4,919 bases of DNA, from positions 1 through 4,919 of the IMG/VR virus record IMGVR_UViG_2703718769_000001; one strand, written 5' to 3'. The position numbers and the translations under genes are program-made. The notes beneath the pieces were generated by a model that was given only the letters and a program-made list of their open reading frames with translations, was not told the DNA's origin and made no database searches. Of this stretch, positions 1 through 4,919 are shown piece by piece (positions within the stretch are counted from its first letter, which is position 1; the number at the start of each line of letters is the position of its first letter). The DNA comes from a virus (Duplodnaviria > Heunggongvirae > Uroviricota > Caudoviricetes).

Positions 1-301
1 CTCTCCAGGAAACCCGGGGCGGTTCATCATGATTACTTGCAGGTTCGGCACCATGAAGCATGGCAGCACGGCAGGCGTTCCAGCCTTGAACCTTAGCTAT
101 TGCCACAACTGCATCGGTAAAGAACATTCTCGCGGTATCTGGCTCCGGAATTTCATCCGGCACATATGCAGGAGATGGCTTGTCAGCGAGCATTGACATC
201 AACGCGCAGATGGTGTCCTCGCTGATTTCAAACATACCACTGGCGTTCTGCGTCGAGGATTTAAGCTCTTCGATAATGCGCTCTTTCGTAAACTCAGCCA
301 T
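1..301 (-). CDS. Hypothetical protein, 3'-partial (runs off window start); begins MAEFTKERIIEELKSSTQNASGMFEISEDTICALMSMLADKPSPAYVPDE...
   Basis: ATG at 299-301 (minus strand), GGGGAG Shine-Dalgarno about 7 nt upstream overlapping the stop of the upstream gene; open for 100 codons to the window edge with no stop. Not in the ORF track because no stop is in the window. No family recognised. Confidence 0.5.
   Translation of the reverse strand, partial: MAEFTKERIIEELKSSTQNASGMFEISEDTICALMSMLADKPSPAYVPDEIPEPDTARMFFTDAVVAIAKVQGWNACRAAMLHGAEPASNHDEPPRVSWR
2..26. repeat. Left copy of terminal inverted repeat (tctccaggaaacccggggcggttca)
   Basis: Reverse complement of 4895-4919 is tctccaggattcccggggcggttca; 23/25 identical, mismatches at 11-12. 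Extends to about 31 nt with one indel. Contains a CCCGGG site. Confidence 0.8.
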
Positions 302-305
302 ATCC

Positions 306-842
306 CTACTCCCCATTGATGCTGACATTAACGCCAGCTTTGCGAATCTCATCGGCGCATCTGTTGATAATATTTCTGTGAAACTCACAAAAAATTTTCG
401 CCGACTGCGGCCCTAATGGGTGAACATCTTGCGCACGCGGCAGCACAACCTCCCGCGCCTCCAGCTCAGAAATCCGCTTCTCTGCTGCTTCCAGTTCAAC
501 ACGCAGCTTCCCTACCGTAAGAGCAATTTCCTCGTTCTCCTGGTCGCGGCGTTTGATGTATTGCTGTTTTCTTTCCAGCTCATCCAGCAGCGCCAAGACG
601 GTAGCCGGATTGGCTGCGGCGATGAATTCAGCATTGGCCTGCTGTTCCATTTGGAAATCTTCATCGAAACCGCTTTCTGGATGCGCTCCTTCAATTCTGC
701 AAATGGGAAGATATCCAGCAACTTCACGATGAATTAGCGCATCATCACCATCAAATCGGCCCTCTCCATATTCGAGCGACCACTCGCCACACGTTGCTTT
801 CTCTGCCTTTTCACGCAGTGCCTGATAGTCAATCTTGCTCAC
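306..842 (-). CDS. ead/Ea22-like lambdoid early protein with central coiled-coil (178 aa)
   Basis: GTG start at 840-842 preceded by AAGGAGG at 6-nt spacing. Translation MSKIDYQALREKAEKATCGEW...ANPATVLALLDELERKQQ... resembles the ead/Ea22-like family as recalled from memory; not verified by search. Confidence 0.55.
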   Translation of the reverse strand: MSKIDYQALREKAEKATCGEWSLEYGEGRFDGDDALIHREVAGYLPICRIEGAHPESGFDEDFQMEQQANAEFIAAANPATVLALLDELERKQQYIKRRDQENEEIALTVGKLRVELEAAEKRISELEAREVVLPRAQDVHPLGPQSAKIFCEFHRNIINRCADEIRKAGVNVSINGE

Positions 843-1323
843 TGGCCGCCTCCTTCATAAAAATAATCCAGTGGGTCTTGTCACCTTTTCCTGTTCGTTG
901 ACCGATAACAGGCTTTCTGTCGGTCAGTGCCAATATCTGGCGAACAGGTATTTGCGTTTCATTCCATTTAAAAATCAGAACGCCGTATGGCCGCAACACA
1001 CGAAAGGCTTCTTTAAATCCCTGCCGCAAATCATCACGCCAGGTATCTTTATTCAGCCGTCCATATTTCTTTCCCATCCAGGCGTTATCACCAACACGCT
1101 CAAGATGCGGAGGGTCGAATACAACAACCGGAAACGATGCGTCTGCAAATGGTAATGCACGAAAATCTGCTATCAGGTCAGGGCTAATTATCAGCCGTCG
1201 TCCATCACATAATGTGTGCTCTTCCTTTCTGATATCGCTAAATATCGCCCGGTCGTCATTCTTATCGAACCAGAACATGCGACTGCCACAGCACATGTCG
1301 AGGATAGCTGCATGTCCAGTCAC
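829..1323 (-). CDS. Small SAM-dependent methyltransferase, probable phage orphan DNA methyltransferase (164 aa)
   Basis: GTG start at 1321-1323 overlapping the upstream TGA stop (GTGA), AAGGAGG 6 nt upstream. Contains a motif-I-like segment ILDMCCGSRMF and a motif-IV-like VVVFDPPH about 60 residues later, then LIFKW and QRTGKGDKTHW. Precise class (N6-adenine, N4-cytosine, MT-A70-like) cannot be resolved by eye. Confidence 0.6.
   Translation of the reverse strand: MTGHAAILDMCCGSRMFWFDKNDDRAIFSDIRKEEHTLCDGRRLIISPDLIADFRALPFADASFPVVVFDPPHLERVGDNAWMGKKYGRLNKDTWRDDLRQGFKEAFRVLRPYGVLIFKWNETQIPVRQILALTDRKPVIGQRTGKGDKTHWIIFMKEAASEQD
849..855 (-). promoter_or_regulatory. Shine-Dalgarno AAGGAGG for the ead/Ea22-like gene
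   Basis: Minus-strand AAGGAGG lies 6 nt upstream of the GTG start at 842. Confidence 0.6.
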
Positions 1324-1718
1324 TGGTTGCCTCCTTTGCGAAGCTGGGCGGCTAACTCGTCACATATGTGCGTCAAAGAGCAAAGTTTGATTGATGGATG
1401 TTCGCGCATCATCTCTACCCCCTGCGCCCGCACTTCAGCCAGGAAGGCGTCGGTGGCCGGGGTTTTGCAGGACATTTGAATTGCCTTCTCTGTGTATAAA
1501 ACACCCGTTCGATTGGCGGTATACATGATGGTGTTTACAGCATCTTGATGTGCTGATTTCACAGCCTCAACTTCAGCAGCCAGCGCCGCGCACTTGGCCT
1601 CCGCTTCAGCAAATTTACGCACCAGATATTCAGCGTTTGTTTCGTTAACCTTTAAATCACTTGGGATGCATTTACCTTTCAGAAATCCATCCATCTCAAT
1701 TAGTGTCATTTGTTTCAT
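1320..1718 (-). CDS. Hypothetical coiled-coil protein (132 aa from ATG at 1718; track gives a GTG-start version to 1736)
   Basis: ATG at 1716-1718 overlaps the TGA stop of the upstream small ORF (ATGA coupling); GGAG/GGGAAG upstream. Translation [16 protein letters not shown]...[18 protein letters not shown]...; no family recognised. Start choice is uncertain. Confidence 0.5.
1330..1336 (-). promoter_or_regulatory. Shine-Dalgarno AAGGAGG for the methyltransferase gene
   Basis: Minus-strand AAGGAGG lies 6 nt upstream of the GTG start at 1323. Confidence 0.6.
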
Positions 1719-1879
1719 TTCTTCCCACTCCGCCACATCGCATTCAGATACTTGTTTTGATTCACTGATGGAAAAGAATTTCTCTTAAGCAATTCCTCTC
1801 TCGATGGCATTGGCTTTACGCGTTGGCGAATAATCATTTCTGCCGGAAGAATGCCGGGATTGTATGCAAGTCCTCTCAT
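1715..1879 (-). CDS. Small hypothetical protein (54 aa; [54 protein letters not shown])
   Basis: ATG at 1877-1879 with GAGGAA 7 nt upstream; an alternative in-frame ATG at 1896 overlaps the upstream gene's stop. Its stop overlaps the start of the downstream gene (ATGA). Fills an otherwise uncovered gap in a compact operon. Below the track's length cut-off as an ATG ORF. Confidence 0.35.
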
Positions 1880-1889
1880 GGTAAATTCC

Positions 1890-2186
1890 TCAGTCATTAC
1901 TGATAGCGCCATAGCGTGAGCGGTAATTACGCAGGCGCGGGTCGATATATTCAGGGAAGTGGGTATATGTGGCTTTGCGGAATGGTCGGATTGATGTCTG
2001 GTAAATTCGCTCGCGTTCTTCTTTCTCTGCAAGCCATATACAGTGGCGAAATTCCTTTTCCTCTTTCGTTTCCTGCGGTAGAGACATTATTCGATCGTAG
2101 TTTTTTCTGAATTTATCCAGCACCTCCGATACGGAATTGCCGGAACAGCGGCGCGCGTCATCCGCACCATACAGAGGCGCTGGCAT
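1890..2186 (-). CDS. Hypothetical phage protein (98 aa)
   Basis: ATG at 2184-2186 with AGGAG about 7 nt upstream, 13 nt after the HNH stop. Translation [44 protein letters not shown]...; no family recognised. Confidence 0.55.
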
Positions 2187-2199
2187 GATTTTCTCCTGA

Positions 2200-2679
2200 T
2201 TAAATTGCGTGAATAGCGTGACGAGGGAAGGGGAGAGTTACTGGTTCCTCGTCTGGGTAGATAGGTTTGTTATGTTTGTGCCACTCGAAATGACATGACT
2301 TGCAGAGCCACATCACATCGGTTGGTTTGCTGTAGTCGCAGTGGTGCGCCTGTGGTTTACATCCTGATCCGCAGCACTCACATTGTGGTGGTCGGATTAG
2401 CTTACCGTCGCGCAAAAAATTACCCACAATGATGTGGGCTTTTCTTTTCCATGGGTTGCTCTGAATGAACCGCTTTTTGGCTGCGTTACACCGTTCTCTT
2501 CCGCGTTCCGATGATTGATATTCTCTCCTTGCTGATACTCGATGTGGCAATCCAGCGCGTTCTTTGTCGTATTCAGCCAGGCAAGCCCGGCAAGCGGCAG
2601 TTAATCCATCTCTGGATGCTCTTCTGATTTGAAAGTCCCTTTCTTCCTTCTGTTGATGGCATCTTGAGCAGATTTTCAT
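2200..2679 (-). CDS. HNH endonuclease with N-terminal Cys-rich zinc-ribbon region (159 aa)
   Basis: ATG at 2677-2679 with GGAG about 7 nt upstream. C-terminal CECCGSGCKPQAHHCDYSKPTDVMWLCKSCHFEWH fits an HNH/zinc-finger nuclease core; N-terminal CSRCH...CRAC Cys pairs. Confidence 0.65.
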   Translation of the reverse strand: MKICSRCHQQKEERDFQIRRASRDGLTAACRACLAEYDKERAGLPHRVSARREYQSSERGRERCNAAKKRFIQSNPWKRKAHIIVGNFLRDGKLIRPPQCECCGSGCKPQAHHCDYSKPTDVMWLCKSCHFEWHKHNKPIYPDEEPVTLPFPRHAIHAI

Positions 2680-2688
2680 ATTCAGCTC

Positions 2689-3162
2689 CTAGAACGGAAT
2701 ATCCGAATCGTCGAAGTTCATAGGTGGTTCGCTGTGATTCCCATGCTGCTGAGATTGCTGTCTTTGTTGCTGGCCGTTATTTCGCTGAGGTGAAGACTGT
2801 TCATTGCTTCCTTGCTTGCCACCAAGCATTTGCATGGTTCCACCAACGCCCACGATAACTTCGGTAGTGAACCGATCCTGTCCGCTTTGATCCTGCCATT
2901 TTCTTGTCCGCAATTTTCCTTCAAGATAAACCTCAGAGCCTTTTCGCAGATATTCGCTGGCAATTTCTGCCAGTTTCCCGCTCATTACCACACGGTGCCA
3001 CTCCGTCTGCTCCTTTTGCTCTCCAGTTTGCTTATCACGCCATTGTTCTGACGTAGCAACTGTAAGGTTTGCAAATGCCGTTCCTGATGGTGAATATCTG
3101 ATTTCTGGATCATGCCCAAGGCGACCAATAATGATCACCTTATTTACGCCTCTGCTTGCCAT
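2689..3162 (-). CDS. ssb: Single-stranded DNA-binding protein, phage-encoded (157 aa)
   Basis: Translation [23 protein letters not shown]...[52 protein letters not shown]...DDSDIPF shows an SSB OB-fold core, Gly/Gln-rich linker and acidic C-terminal tail ending DIPF. ATG immediately follows the TAA of the upstream gene. Confidence 0.9.
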
Positions 3163-3870
3163 TTATGCCGCCTGTTTTAGCTCGTTAACTCTGATGTTCA
3201 TTACCTGAACGCATTTAGCCTGCGCCTCCTCGTTTCCAGCCATTAATTGCCAGTCACGCTGATAACGCTCGATGAGTTTTTTCTTGTCAGTTTCTGTTGA
3301 CGCATAATCGCTGAAGTCTTTCAGGATTTGTTCGCAGTCAACCGATGGAGATTTCTGGTTGGTATTTTCTGGTGATGGTTTGTTATCTGATGCTGGGATT
3401 GCCCATCCCGGCAGCGATGGAGGGAGCCAGTAAAATCCTGTTCCATCCTTCAGTTTTGCCCTGTGCCACCCCTGCTTTTTATCGAGAGATGTTTGTGCGA
3501 AACCTTCCTCAAGGTTATACAGATACCGACCGATTCCCCACTGAACGGCAGCGCGCTTCATTGCACCGGAACGACCACCTTTGACGGCTTCTACCTGCGT
3601 GTTTTCAGCAGCATCCCATTTGGTTACCCATTCGGAATCAATCTTTATTGATATGCCGCATTCAACGCCGCCGTTGTTGGGAATATCGCGGTATTCATTG
3701 CGCCATCCTGCTTTGCCGCAAACATCGTCCAGGCGTTTCATGATTGCCCGGTTCGTGACATAAGCCAGCACCATAGCCCACACCTTGCCATCGCGTGTTT
3801 TACCGCTTTGCTGTATTCGCCATTCGATATCTTCAGGGCTGAATGGCTCATCGAATTTGTTCAAATCCAT
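3163..3870 (-). CDS. Rad52/Sak-type single-strand annealing protein, phage recombinase (235 aa)
   Basis: ATG at 3868-3870 with GAGGTG upstream. N-terminal FDEPFSPEDIEWRIQQ...AMVLAYVTNRAIMKRLDDVCGKAGWRNEY matches the pattern recalled for phage Rad52-family annealing proteins; sits directly upstream of ssb. Family assignment is from memory. Confidence 0.65.
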   Translation of the reverse strand: MDLNKFDEPFSPEDIEWRIQQSGKTRDGKVWAMVLAYVTNRAIMKRLDDVCGKAGWRNEYRDIPNNGGVECGISIKIDSEWVTKWDAAENTQVEAVKGGRSGAMKRAAVQWGIGRYLYNLEEGFAQTSLDKKQGWHRAKLKDGTGFYWLPPSLPGWAIPASDNKPSPENTNQKSPSVDCEQILKDFSDYASTETDKKKLIERYQRDWQLMAGNEEAQAKCVQVMNIRVNELKQAA

Positions 3871-3878
3871 AATTCACC

Positions 3879-4049
3879 TCAGAATGGACACGGCCCAAGG
3901 AAATAACGCTGATTTAATACTTCGACTCGGGACAAATTAAGGCATACCCGCATTCCTTCGCGGTCACCATTATGGCGATACCAGAGAGCTTTCTGAGTGT
4001 ACATGCGCCTCTGTAACTTGCTCTCCTTCACTGTGGTTGCAAGTGACAT
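3879..4049 (-). CDS. Small basic hypothetical protein (56 aa; MSLATTVKESKLQRRMYTQKALWYRHNGDREGMRVCLNLSRVEVLNQRYFLGPCPF) at the position of gam/arf in lambda/P22
   Basis: ATG at 4047-4049 with AAGGAG at 6-nt spacing (4056-4061); its TGA stop overlaps the Shine-Dalgarno of the annealing-protein gene. A competing 52-aa ORF (3970..4128) starts on an ATGA overlap with kil, so the true frame is unresolved. Confidence 0.35.
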   Translation of the reverse strand: MSLATTVKESKLQRRMYTQKALWYRHNGDREGMRVCLNLSRVEVLNQRYFLGPCPF

Positions 4050-4124
4050 GAATATCTCCTTCGTTACCGATTAATTCTTTCATCTGACGAATGAATTCTT
4101 CGTCTGACCAGTTATCTGTAAAAC

Positions 4125-4277
4125 TCATTTCCTGCGATACCACGGAAGGTTGATAGCTGATTTCATCGCTTTATTTGCTTCAAGCCACATTTTGGAATCA
4201 CCAATAAATCTGGCTATTACTGCTTTGTTCTGTGCAGCGCGAAGCATCTGGTGATTGATGTCTATTTCATTGCGCAT
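4125..4277 (-). CDS. kil: Kil-like host cell-division inhibitor peptide (50 aa)
   Basis: ATG at 4275-4277, overlapping the 3' end of the cIII homolog by 16 nt. Translation MRNEIDINHQMLRAAQNKAVIARFIGDSKMWLEANKAMKSAINLPWYRRK; the IA.FIGD.KM..EA core resembles lambda Kil as recalled, and the position right after cIII matches lambda. Confidence 0.55.
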   Translation of the reverse strand: MRNEIDINHQMLRAAQNKAVIARFIGDSKMWLEANKAMKSAINLPWYRRK

Positions 4278-4393
4278 AATAAGACCTCAACTCTTTTCCA
4301 TCCGTCACGTAATTTACGGGTGATTCGTTCAAGTAAAGATTCATTTAGTTGGAAGGCACCCATGCGAGCGCCTCCCGCGATTGCGTAAATCAT
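4262..4393 (-). CDS. cIII: cIII homolog, FtsH/HflB protease inhibitor (43 aa)
   Basis: ATG at 4391-4393 with AAGGAA 7 nt upstream. Translation MIYAIAGGARMGAFQLNESLLERITRKLRDGWKRVEVLLCAMK contains the ESLLERITRKLRDGWKR helix recalled from lambda cIII. Below the track's 60-aa cut-off. Confidence 0.8.
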   Translation of the reverse strand: MIYAIAGGARMGAFQLNESLLERITRKLRDGWKRVEVLLCAMK

Positions 4394-4417
4394 GGGTGGT
4401 TCCTTATATTGGTTTTA

Positions 4418-4919
4418 TTAGTAGGTTATTTTTGTTGCGAATACTTCGCCTTTTACGATGGCTGTTATGATATTTTTAGCAACATCTTCTGATGCACCAA
4501 CCTTGATAAGGTCAGCAAGTATTTTGTTATTTACTTCTTTCCGGTGAGCTTTATCCTTTGCTCTACGCTCTTCTTCGTCCTTGATTCTTTTTTCTTCTGC
4601 TATTCTGGCTTGCTCTTTTGCTTCAGCCTCGCGCCGGATTCGTTCAGCCTCCTCCTGTGCTTTTCGGCGTTCTGCTTCAATTGCCGCATGCTTTTCTCTT
4701 TCAGCTCGTTCTGCTGCCTCTTTTGCTTCGCGCTGTGCTCGTTGCTCGGCTTCAATGCGTTCACGCTCTGCACGTTCCGCTGCGGCCTTAGCTTCTGCTT
4801 CTCGCCTTGCTGCTGCTTCAATTTCGGCTTTTGCCTTTGCTTCGGCTTCTGCTCTGGCTTTCTCTTCAGCTTCTCTTTTTAAGCGTTCTTCATGTGAACC
4901 GCCCCGGGAATCCTGGAGA
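4418..4919 (-). CDS. Charged low-complexity coiled-coil protein, 5'-partial (start beyond window end); superficially TolA domain II-like
   Basis: Minus-strand frame is open from the window edge for 166 codons to tandem TAA TAA at 4415-4420. Translation ...EAEEKARAEAEAKAKAEIEAAARREAEAKAAAERAERERIEAEQRAQREAKEAAERAEREKHAAIEAERRKAQEEAERIRREAEAKEQARIAEEKRIKDEEERRAKDKAHRKEVNNKILADLIKVGASEDVAKNIITAIVKGEVFATKITY. Not in the ORF track because no start is in the window. Confidence 0.55.
   Translation of the reverse strand, partial: LQDSRGGSHEERLKREAEEKARAEAEAKAKAEIEAAARREAEAKAAAERAERERIEAEQRAQREAKEAAERAEREKHAAIEAERRKAQEEAERIRREAEAKEQARIAEEKRIKDEEERRAKDKAHRKEVNNKILADLIKVGASEDVAKNIITAIVKGEVFATKITY
4540..4890. 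repeat. Low-complexity pyrimidine-rich (plus strand) cryptic simple-sequence tract, GCTTC/GCTGC-type units, encoding the E/A/R/K repeat region
   Basis: Visible reiteration of gcttc, gctgc, ttctgc and cttttgc motifs; all three frames on both strands are low-complexity, which explains the spurious track ORFs 4544..4882(+) and 4600..4821(-). Confidence 0.6.
4895..4919. repeat. Right copy of terminal inverted repeat (tgaaccgccccgggaatcctggaga)
   Basis: Inverted partner of 2-26 (23/25). Lies inside the 5'-partial coiled-coil ORF. Confidence 0.8.

Follow-up and report, generated by a model that had tools for sequence, protein, structure and literature searches.

The early genes of phage P22 are arranged in the order c3-kil-arf-erf-abc1-abc2-orf56 and do not include an exonuclease gene. 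For P22 Abc2 it was shown that the protein binds to RecC and abolishes the Chi response of RecBCD, while helicase and nuclease stay active, and that Pro68 of Abc2 occupies the PpiB site (PMC9836394). The absence of an exonuclease in phages encoding Abc2 was proposed to be a consequence of Abc2 co-opting RecBCD for resection (PMC9836394). Abc2 works also with Sak4 and with lambda Bet, both of which are devoid of the Erf-type C-terminal domain (PMC5928155). Sak4 is of the RecA/Rad51 type and is encoded in phage HK620 within the cluster hkaM-sak4-ssb-abc2, i.e., a small orphan ORF is followed by the genes for an annealing protein, its cognate SSB and Abc2 (PMC5928155). Recombineering by the annealing protein is enhanced by this SSB, whose acidic tail mediates the effect (Hutinet et al., 2018; PMC5928155). 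The lambda Red system (gam-bet-exo) makes and anneals 3' single strands and neutralizes RecBCD, and its annealing protein Red-beta has a C-terminal domain that forms a three-helix bundle and binds both lambda Exo and SSB (PMC8303780). A survey of lambdoid Rec modules (Genome Res 2025, PMC12315714) describes an ES18 type, consisting of anti-RecBCD protein, SSB, nuclease and SAP (25 of 314 phages), and an HK75 type, i.e., the same combination without the nuclease (27 of 314 phages); HNH enzymes are found there among the nuclease types of the modules. Finally, the early left genes 32–25 of Shigella phage Sf6 were described by Casjens et al. (2004).

The window analyzed here is a stretch of 4,919 nt, i.e., positions 1 to 4,919 of the IMG/VR record IMGVR_UViG_2703718769_000001 (Caudoviricetes). 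On its minus strand cIII and kil are followed by two overlapping small ORFs and by the genes for a Rad52-type annealing protein, an SSB, an HNH-like endonuclease, Abc2 and a DUF2737 protein (Table 1), and the spacers within the module measure 0–13 nt. All four ORFs that a first-pass annotation had placed into the interval 2200–4049 were confirmed at their coordinates on this strand, and its reading of three products as a Rad52/Sak-type annealing protein, a dedicated SSB with intact acidic DIPF tail and an HNH-like nuclease is borne out by the profile matches and conserved residues given below. It was also right in locating the module at the position after cIII-kil that in lambda is taken by gam-bet-exo (the related locus L008 carries the annotation Lambda_CIII for cIII), and in recognizing no Exo, Bet or Gam: homologues of Exo (YqaJ-type), RecT/Red-beta/Bet and Gam were absent from the Pfam, PHROGs and NCBIfam matches of all window ORFs. 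A scan for promoters and terminators yielded fewer sites than shuffled sequence and none above chance, so that no noteworthy internal signal remains, and the Rfam search gave no match.

The block from cIII to abc2 corresponds to gp32–gp25 of Sf6 with 97–100% protein identity (96% for gp30), and gene order and spacing are identical. The module is already known, it is an ordinary, catalogued Sf6-like prophage recombination cluster, and as found it matters little, since Sf6 was sequenced and annotated in 2004 and the type is contained in the 2025 survey. Downstream of abc2 the two differ: the window continues with DUF2737, a 138-aa ORF and a methyltransferase, whereas Sf6 continues with gp24, gp23 and gp22, which is ordinary lambdoid mosaicism. 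For comparison, 80 IMG/VR loci with a 99–100% identical annealing protein were examined for their module content; these loci are close relatives and the counts obtained from them do not represent independent events. The DUF2737 gene lies 3' of abc2 in 76 of these 80 loci, as well as in P22 (orf56) and Sf6 (gp23). Judged by gene content, the window would fit the ES18 type and its HNH-less relatives the HK75 type of the survey.

As in a P22-type Rec module, the genes of annealing protein and Abc2 follow contiguously after cIII-kil and a 5'-3' exonuclease gene is missing. The likeness to P22 extends to Abc2, to the C-terminal domain of the annealing protein and to the DUF2737/orf56 gene after abc2. 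The core of the annealing protein, however, is of the Rad52/Sak type and not of the Erf type, ssb and the HNH gene are found at the place of abc1, and homologues of Arf and Abc1 are missing (for P22 Abc1, tblastn of the window gave no match better than E 0.8). HK620 shares the succession of a small orphan ORF, annealing protein, SSB and Abc2, but differs in the type of annealing protein, in an SSB that is not bacterial-type and in having no HNH gene.

Table 1. Features of the recombination module and its flanks in the order of transcription (positions refer to the window).
Feature	Coordinates	Strand	Matches and remarks
cIII, 43 aa	4262..4393	-	100% identical to Sf6 gp32, 72% to P22 C3
kil, 50 aa	4125..4277	-	Pfam Lambda_Kil 1.8e-20; phrog_2055 4e-35; 98% identical to Sf6 gp31
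52-aa small ORF	3970..4128	-	phrog_2123 1.5e-40; 96% identical to Sf6 gp30; HK97 gp42.1 homologue
56-aa small ORF	3879..4049	-	phrog_1723 9e-36; 100% identical to Sf6 gp29; HK97 gp42 homologue
Single-strand annealing protein, 235 aa	3163..3870	-	Pfam PF04098; 99.6% identical to Sf6 gp28
C-terminal domain of annealing protein, aa ~176-235	3166..3345	-	common to P22 Erf
Phage SSB, 157 aa	2689..3162	-	Pfam SSB; 99.4% identical to Sf6 gp27
HNH-like (His-Me finger) endonuclease, 159 aa, N-terminal zinc ribbon	2200..2679	-	98.7% identical to Sf6 gp26
Boundary block, 46 nt, encoding PVTLPFPRHAIHAI + stop codon	2200..2245	-	3' end of HNH gene here
Abc2 anti-RecBCD protein, 98 aa	1890..2186	-	Pfam PF11043; phrog_656; PDB 8B1T chain A; 96.9% identical to Sf6 gp25
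DUF2737 gene, 54 aa	1715..1879	-	tblastn with Sf6 gp23: 96% identity over 54 aa

The first-pass annotation had stated that no RecBCD inhibitor is recognizable. This has to be revised, as the gene starting 13 nt past the stop codon of the HNH gene, i.e., just beyond the interval 2200–4049, and preceded by an AGGAG ribosome-binding site encodes a full-length Abc2 (Pfam PF11043: E 4.1e-61, residues 1–98 on profile positions 1–97 of 97; phrog_656: E 2e-56; PDB 8B1T chain A, P22 Abc2 on RecBCD: E 1.8e-55). The protein is 92% identical to P22 Abc2, 97% to Sf6 gp25 and 97% to HK620 hkaJ, and Pro68 is conserved. From the 92% identity to P22 Abc2 we infer that it would bind RecC and cause a loss of the Chi response. 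The adjacent abc2 gene together with the published model of RecBCD hijacking explains the apparent gap in the module, because a RecC-binding protein that is proposed to make RecBCD the resecting enzyme answers both the lack of Gam and the lack of Exo. An exonuclease gene immediately flanking the module, which had been named as an observation speaking against the earlier reading, was not found as such, and the point is superseded by the presence of Abc2.

Based on homology, and for some steps on analogy, the interval very probably represents the middle of a P22/Sf6-type early left (PL) recombination module of a lambdoid prophage, for which the following working is proposed. Abc2 would bind to RecC of the host RecBCD and thereby stop the Chi response and the loading of RecA, while the Abc2-bound enzyme would keep its helicase and 5'-strand nuclease, sparing the phage DNA without Gam; for P22 Abc2 this step has been established. 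With these activities left, the host enzyme would supply the end resection that lambda gets from Exo. The phage SSB, as suggested by its family membership, would coat the 3' single strand, and the Rad52-type protein would anneal this strand to its complement, its C-terminal domain, by analogy, most likely docking it to the SSB tail or to the Abc2-RecBCD complex. Cofactors that serve the annealing protein as Arf serves Erf might be encoded by the 56-aa ORF and possibly also by the 52-aa ORF, as judged from linkage only. The HNH gene, finally, would be an optional homing-endonuclease-like cassette, whose insertion point lies exactly where the DIPF codon of ssb meets a conserved 46-nt block in front of abc2. 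Such a module would share with lambda Red the making and annealing of 3' single strands, the neutralization of RecBCD and an annealing protein with a helical, putatively partner-binding C-terminal domain; in contrast to lambda Red, RecBCD would be modified rather than blocked and resection would be outsourced to it.

The assignment of the annealing protein is based on its match to Pfam PF04098 (Rad52_Rad22; E 5e-26, residues 4–136 on profile positions 7–153 of 153) with 91.9 bits at a curated cut-off of 20.3 bits. A total of 5594 homologues was found, and PF04098 is present in 120 of the 120 listed. NCBIfam gave no match, and PDB searches with the single sequence and with a profile yielded nothing significant. 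The protein is composed of the Rad52-family core (residues 4–136), a conserved W/P-rich hairpin (residues ~129–158), a variable linker and, at the C-terminus, a domain predicted to consist of three helices; the AF2 model has a mean pLDDT of 80 and predicts the C-terminal helices 179–192, 196–209 and 214–234 with pLDDT values around 90. Residues 157–235 are 63% identical to residues 134–205 of P22 Erf (E 7e-30), whereas the N-terminal cores of the two proteins do not align. The occurrence of the C-terminal domain of P22 Erf on a Rad52-type core is a minor new detail. Rad52-type and Erf-type cores bearing one C-terminal domain provide a concrete case of a "shuffling of partner interaction domains", which the survey did not analyze. 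By analogy with Red-beta, the domain is presumed to be a partner-binding domain. That it acts as an Abc2-specific adaptor was considered and rejected as unproven, because Abc2 occurs also with Sak4 and works with Sak4 and lambda Bet, which do not have the domain.

The SSB matches Pfam SSB (E 1.7e-38), TIGR00621 (180.5 bits at a cut-off of 53.95 bits) and the structure of E. coli SSB (PDB 1EQQ; E 3.5e-63), and its start codon abuts the stop codon of the annealing-protein gene. In the window its C-terminus reads ...FDDSDIPF directly before the stop codon, and the protein has the OB-fold domain, the disordered linker and the acidic IPF tip with free carboxylate of an SSB of the bacterial type. 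Among the relatives this end depends on the presence of the HNH gene. In all 59 HNH-less loci the ssb frame continues for 15 codons beyond DIPF (...DIPF-APVTLPFPRHAIHAI), giving the extended tail ...DIPFAPVTLPFPRHAIHAI and, in the HK75 type, the ssb/abc2 junction ...GATATACCCTTTGCACCAGTAACTCTCC..., whereas in all 21 HNH-bearing loci, and in the window, DIPF is the very end of SSB and the 14-residue tail belongs to the HNH protein. The 46-nt block of Table 1 is the 3' end of ssb in the HNH-less relatives; it agrees with the 3' end of mEpX2 ssb at 100% identity, directly adjoins abc2 in HK75 and occurs once in each of the 80 loci. The partners of bacterial SSBs recognize the Pro-Phe carboxyl terminus. 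The extension beyond DIPF would bury this terminus in the HNH-less relatives. The dependence of the DIPF end of SSB on the HNH insert is a minor new detail, and the perfect linkage to a free or an extended tail might be of use to phage geneticists. The Sf6 annotation already records 14 residues that are common to gp26 and an SSB.

The HNH protein has phrog_2340 "endonuclease" (E 1e-46) as its sole named profile match; curated HNH profiles did not detect it, with no match to Pfam and NCBIfam at E<=0.1, and PDB searches with the single sequence and with a profile gave nothing significant. A Pfam scan of 29 family members revealed that no HNH model recognizes the family, only two of the 29 touching PF01844 at E 0.68. 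Nevertheless, in the 29 sequences, down to 34% identity, C100, C103, H112, H113, D115, H130 and H134 are invariant and C126 is nearly so, and at position 129 Cys is replaced by His in three members. The protein therefore has the conserved catalytic His, the metal-binding His and the CxxC...CxxC/H zinc site of an HNH enzyme. Its best structural matches are the nicking HNH enzymes Gme HNH and T5 SciA.

Within the 80 related loci, which are close relatives, abc2 and ssb are present in 80 of 80 each, and the slot between them contains the HNH gene in 21, a DnaQ-like 3'-5' exonuclease in 24 and neither in 38, so that some nuclease is found in 42 slots. The HNH insert is always located between the DIPF codon of ssb and the 46-nt block (21 loci), and it is missing in the other 59, i.e., there is a presence/absence polymorphism at one precise site. 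Its relatives are intron-encoded or lie beside baseplate or polymerase genes of unrelated virulent phages, and phages of Vibrio, Klebsiella, Bacillus, Pseudomonas and Pectobacterium carry copies; around the copy of the 145-kb Pectobacterium phage DU_PP_I no recombination genes are recognizable. I-KsaII from the polA intron of Staphylococcus phages K/A5W is 35% identical over 84% of the 159-aa protein (E 2e-20) and shares zinc ribbon and HNH-like core, but it is encoded in a group I intron that interrupts an essential gene, while the window HNH gene is free-standing between two genes. Both the polymorphism at a precise site and the relatives in introns and unrelated contexts are hallmarks of homing genes, suggesting that the HNH gene is an optional cassette of a homing-endonuclease-like family and not the missing nuclease. 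This reading is not secure, because 42 of the 80 slots contain a nuclease and because tightly packed HNH genes in such modules are regarded as probably legitimate members in the survey (PMC12315714). Alternatively, the HNH protein might be a working member of the module, which occupies a true "nuclease slot" and cuts or nicks to create the ends used by Abc2-RecBCD and the annealing protein, or processes branched intermediates. The tight packing of the co-oriented gene, which is separated from ssb by 9 nt and from abc2 by 13 nt, the fact that the slot may instead be taken by another nuclease, the structural likeness to nicking enzymes and the invariant catalytic and zinc ligands point in this direction, and we regard this alternative as possible but doubtful: of the 80 modules, which agree in annealing protein, ssb and abc2, 38 have no nuclease in the slot, two HNH alleles of only 47% identity share the junction and the resident 14-codon tail, and 11 of 80 loci have a second, unrelated HNH gene (PF13392) at a different junction of the module, independent families at junctions being the behavior of mobile genes. 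Phage geneticists may find use in the clean natural series formed by these loci, in which annealing protein, SSB and Abc2 stay the same and are accompanied by no nuclease, HNH, DnaQ-like exonuclease or both.

Between kil and the annealing-protein gene the first-pass annotation had noted a single small ORF of unknown function. The 56-aa ORF proved to be a real gene, but a second ORF of 52 aa overlapping it had been missed. The 52-aa ORF, whose start overlaps the kil stop, is found at the exact position of P22 arf, and its C-terminus varies between alleles. A homology to Arf was nevertheless rejected because it would rest on a short motif only: the two proteins have just the seven-residue N-terminal (F/W)SDEEFI motif in common (pairwise E 0.006 over 17 aa) and belong to different PHROGs (2123 and, for P22 Arf, 2445). 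The 56-aa ORF stops 8 nt before the annealing-protein gene, and one of three alleles, all ending in ...PF, precedes this gene in 79 of the 80 closely related loci. A resemblance to Kil was tried and dropped, as BLASTP gave no significant alignment, and NCBIfam gave no match for the small ORFs, HNH or Abc2. For the 56-aa ORF, with its linkage to the annealing-protein gene, an Arf-like cofactor fits better than a RecBCD inhibitor.

The ...PF ends of the small ORF, as possible mimics of the SSB tail, could be combined with the changed SSB terminus into the suggestion that the HNH insertion rewires SSB and that the module tunes docking to the SSB tail, which we consider improbable. Least of all is to be expected that anti-RecBCD protein and exonuclease are missing from the module and that either HNH or the small ORF situated where gam or arf would be supplies such a function, as proposed in the first-pass annotation, since, despite the absence of Exo, Bet and Gam homologues and the conservation of small ORFs without known function, full-length Abc2 is the next gene and present in 80 of 80 related loci, HNH is missing from 59 of them, and the small ORF accompanies the annealing-protein gene in the way that Arf accompanies Erf and HkaM accompanies Sak4.

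As a further minor new detail, the 56-aa ORF is under purifying selection. Compared with the allele of HK75, mEpX2 and L008, dN is 0.13 and dS 0.66–0.81, resulting in a dN/dS of about 0.2, while in the other two frames dN exceeds dS.

The anti-RecBCD function that appeared to be missing from the recombination module lies next to it. The abc2 gene starts 13 nt past the HNH stop codon, just beyond the interval read by the first-pass annotation (2200-4049), so the statement made there that no RecBCD inhibitor is recognisable was wrong, and there is no longer a reason to look for a "missing" function. The product is a full-length Abc2 and matches Pfam Anti-RecBCD_p2 (4.1e-61, profile search), phrog_656 in PHROGs (2e-56) and chain A of 8B1T, the cryo-EM structure of RecBCD with Abc2 (1.8e-55), with Pro68 conserved. 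The reported lack of a recognisable Exo, Bet or Gam holds, as no window ORF matched any of the three in Pfam, PHROGs or NCBIfam. It was shown that P22 Abc2 binds RecC beside the Chi-recognition region while helicase activity is kept, and according to the proposed model Abc2 hijacks RecBCD, which then generates the single strand and loads it with the phage recombinase in place of RecA (PMC9836394). As the window Abc2 is 92% identical to that of P22, it probably acts by the same mechanism, and it would functionally take the place of both Gam and Exo here. As in the P22 model, Abc2-modified host RecBCD would make the single strand, the phage SSB would coat it and the Rad52-type protein would anneal the coated strand. 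By analogy to HK620, in which the acidic tail of the cognate SSB boosts the annealing protein approximately 14-fold in recombineering and Abc2 is without effect on oligonucleotide recombination (PMC5928155), the SSB would be expected to stimulate the annealing protein and Abc2 to leave oligonucleotide recombination unaffected.

The module is of an already known type, and the adjacent Abc2 is the known answer to the puzzle; the observation of the first-pass annotation is partly confirmed and its interpretation partly supported. Shigella phage Sf6 shares 98.5% nucleotide identity across 72% of the window length and has the identical gene order (genes 32 to 25, protein identities 96.9-100%), and parallel arrangements exist in P22 (c3-kil-arf-erf-abc1-abc2-orf56) and HK620 (hkaM-sak4-ssb-abc2; PMC5928155). 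A 2025 survey that covered 314 lambdoid phages of enterobacteria sorts Rec modules by four functions: the "ES18" type combines anti-RecBCD protein, SSB, nuclease and annealing protein (25 phages), the "HK75" type is the same combination without nuclease (27 phages), and HNH endonucleases are one of four nuclease kinds (PMC12315714). Judged from its gene content, the window would belong to the ES18 type. What the module adds are small leads for specialists, i.e., an Erf-type domain on a Rad52 core, an SSB-tail toggle and a PF-ended small protein.

The 159-aa protein is recognised by no Pfam or NCBIfam model and has no PDB sequence match. Nevertheless, C100, C103, H112, H113, D115, H130 and H134 are invariant in an alignment of 29 homologues with identities down to 34%, a pattern that corresponds to a zinc-bearing HNH motif and agrees with the earlier designation as HNH endonuclease. 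Its proposed role as the missing nuclease fares less well. In 80 viral contigs with an annealing protein 99-100% identical to that of the window, loci so closely related that the counts are not independent events, ssb and abc2 are always present (80/80 each). Nothing occupies the slot between the two genes in 38 loci; 21 loci have a DnaQ-like 3'-5' exonuclease there, 18 an HNH gene of the window family and three both, leaving 59 of the 80 without a window-family HNH; for the named phages, Sf6 carries the HNH, mEpX2 the exonuclease and HK75 neither. The protein has relatives in 531 phage records (Vibrio, Staphylococcus, Klebsiella, Bacillus, Pseudomonas and others), among them the intron-encoded I-KsaII (polA intron of Staphylococcus phage A5W; 35% identity, E 2e-20) and a protein of a 145-kb Pectobacterium phage in surroundings without recognisable recombination genes. 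Such a distribution is typical of a homing-endonuclease family and argues against the HNH as the module's essential nuclease; by sequence comparison the gene is best described as an optional cassette. The alternative of a working accessory nuclease retains some weight, since some nuclease fills the slot in 42 of the 80 loci and the survey leans toward tightly packed HNH genes as working members (PMC12315714). However, the empty slots beside the same annealing protein, ssb and abc2, and relatives located in an intron or away from recombination genes, speak against it. In 11/80 loci and in the related locus L008 (3060-3527), an unrelated HNH gene (Pfam HNH_3, 155 aa) is inserted at the exact junction of the annealing-protein gene with ssb; thus two junctions of the operon gather HNH genes. 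In five database proteins (P0011, P0014, P0029, P0049, P0054) the HNH C-terminal part is fused to pieces of the SSB, of the DnaQ-like exonuclease or of an HTH protein, probably as recombination or frameshift products at cassette junctions.

The C-terminus of the SSB depends on the HNH cassette (window positions 2689-2700 and 2200-2245). The SSB of the window (Pfam SSB 1.7e-38; E. coli SSB structures 3.5e-63) ends in ...FDDSDIPF, bearing out the dedicated SSB with intact DIPF tail described earlier. The HNH gene ends in a 46-nt block (2200-2245) that encodes PVTLPFPRHAIHAI plus a stop codon; this block is 100% identical to the final 46 nt of mEpX2 ssb, is contiguous with abc2 in HK75 and is present in exactly one copy in each of the 80 loci. 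In all loci without the HNH (59/59), the ssb frame continues past DIPF into this block and ends in ...DIPFAPVTLPFPRHAIHAI, so that the Pro-Phe tip is not terminal. In all loci with the HNH (21/21) and in the window, the ssb stop codon directly follows DIPF and the HNH frame enters the block, with zero exceptions. Two HNH alleles of only 47% mutual identity use the same junction and tail, and the tail is not conserved elsewhere in the HNH family; it is therefore part of the site rather than of the gene. The annotators of Sf6 had already noted the 14 shared residues; in a non-exhaustive literature search no description of a link between HNH and SSB terminus was found. Unlike the HNH, the exonuclease cassette sits after the block.

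The profile search upheld the Rad52-type assignment of the 235-aa protein (Pfam Rad52_Rad22, E 5e-26; 91.9 bits, cut-off 20.3). Residues 157-235 (window 3166-3400) align to residues 134-205 of P22 Erf with 63% identity (E 7e-30), whereas the N-terminal cores show no alignment and belong to different families (Rad52/Sak-type and Erf-type). By sequence, the protein is a chimera, the same putative partner-binding domain being carried by two different annealing cores. The AF2 model predicts three helices (pLDDT near 90) preceded by a disordered linker for the Erf-type part. For Red-beta, lambda Exo and E. coli SSB were shown to bind to a three-helix C-terminal domain, which is required in vivo although dispensable for annealing (PMC8303780). 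By analogy, the Erf-type domain probably docks SSB, the Abc2-RecBCD complex, or both. A specific link between this domain and Abc2 is not claimed because Abc2 also works beside Sak4, which is without the domain (PMC5928155). Residues 129-164 (3379-3486) bear a weak, non-significant resemblance to a WW domain (E 0.1 to PRP40); W148, P151, L153, P154 and W156 do not vary among 33 homologues, and short strands are predicted for this region by AF2.

Upstream of the annealing-protein gene, substitution patterns mark the 56-aa ORF as a real gene: compared with the divergent allele of HK75, mEpX2 and L008, dN is 0.13 and dS 0.66-0.81, the other two frames across the divergent block have dN>dS, and purifying selection there is confined to the 56-aa frame. 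The 52-aa ORF overlaps it by 80 nt (3970-4049) in a different frame, and its C-terminus and stop position vary between alleles. It occupies the position of P22 arf but has only (F/W)SDEEFI in common with Arf, and the PHROGs differ. In 79/80 loci (L012-L091) one of three alleles of the 56-aa family directly precedes the annealing-protein gene. The alleles measure 56 aa, 56 aa (82% identity) and 62-66 aa (33% identity); the ORF is also present in the related locus L002 (6696-6884). A separate small ORF stands before each type of annealing-protein gene: Arf with Erf, HkaM with Sak4 and the 56-aa ORF with the Rad52 type. Such linkage suggests a recombinase-specific cofactor rather than the RecBCD inhibitor for which the small ORF had been a candidate. 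All three alleles terminate in ...PF (GPCPF or SELPF), which recalls the IPF tip of the SSB.

All credible genes are on the minus strand with spacers of 0-13 nt, compatible with a single leftward early operon. Rfam gave no family match in the window, and promoter-like and terminator-like sites were not more frequent in it than in shuffled sequence.

Genes of the window in order of transcription
Gene or product	Coordinates	Strand	Remark
Partial Glu/Ala/Lys-rich ORF	4418-4919	-	first; extends beyond window end
cIII	4262-4393	-	
kil	4125-4277	-	Pfam Lambda_Kil 1.8e-20
52-aa ORF	3970-4128	-	
56-aa ORF	3879-4049	-	overlaps 52-aa ORF
235-aa annealing protein	3163-3870	-	Pfam Rad52_Rad22
157-aa SSB	2689-3162	-	Pfam SSB
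159-aa HNH-like protein	2200-2679	-	conserved-residue pattern
98-aa Abc2	1890-2186	-	Pfam Anti-RecBCD_p2
54-aa DUF2737 protein	1715-1879	-	96% identity to Sf6 gp23
138-aa ORF, then methyltransferase, then Ead/Ea22 protein		-	last

The DUF2737 gene is nested in a 105-aa TTG-started ORF (1715-2032) of the mechanical ORF list. The partial ORF at the high end of the window, a homologue of Sf6 gp33, is very rich in Glu, Ala, Lys and Arg with TolA-like charged repeats and a small C-terminal domain, and it accounts for the strong AT skew at this end.
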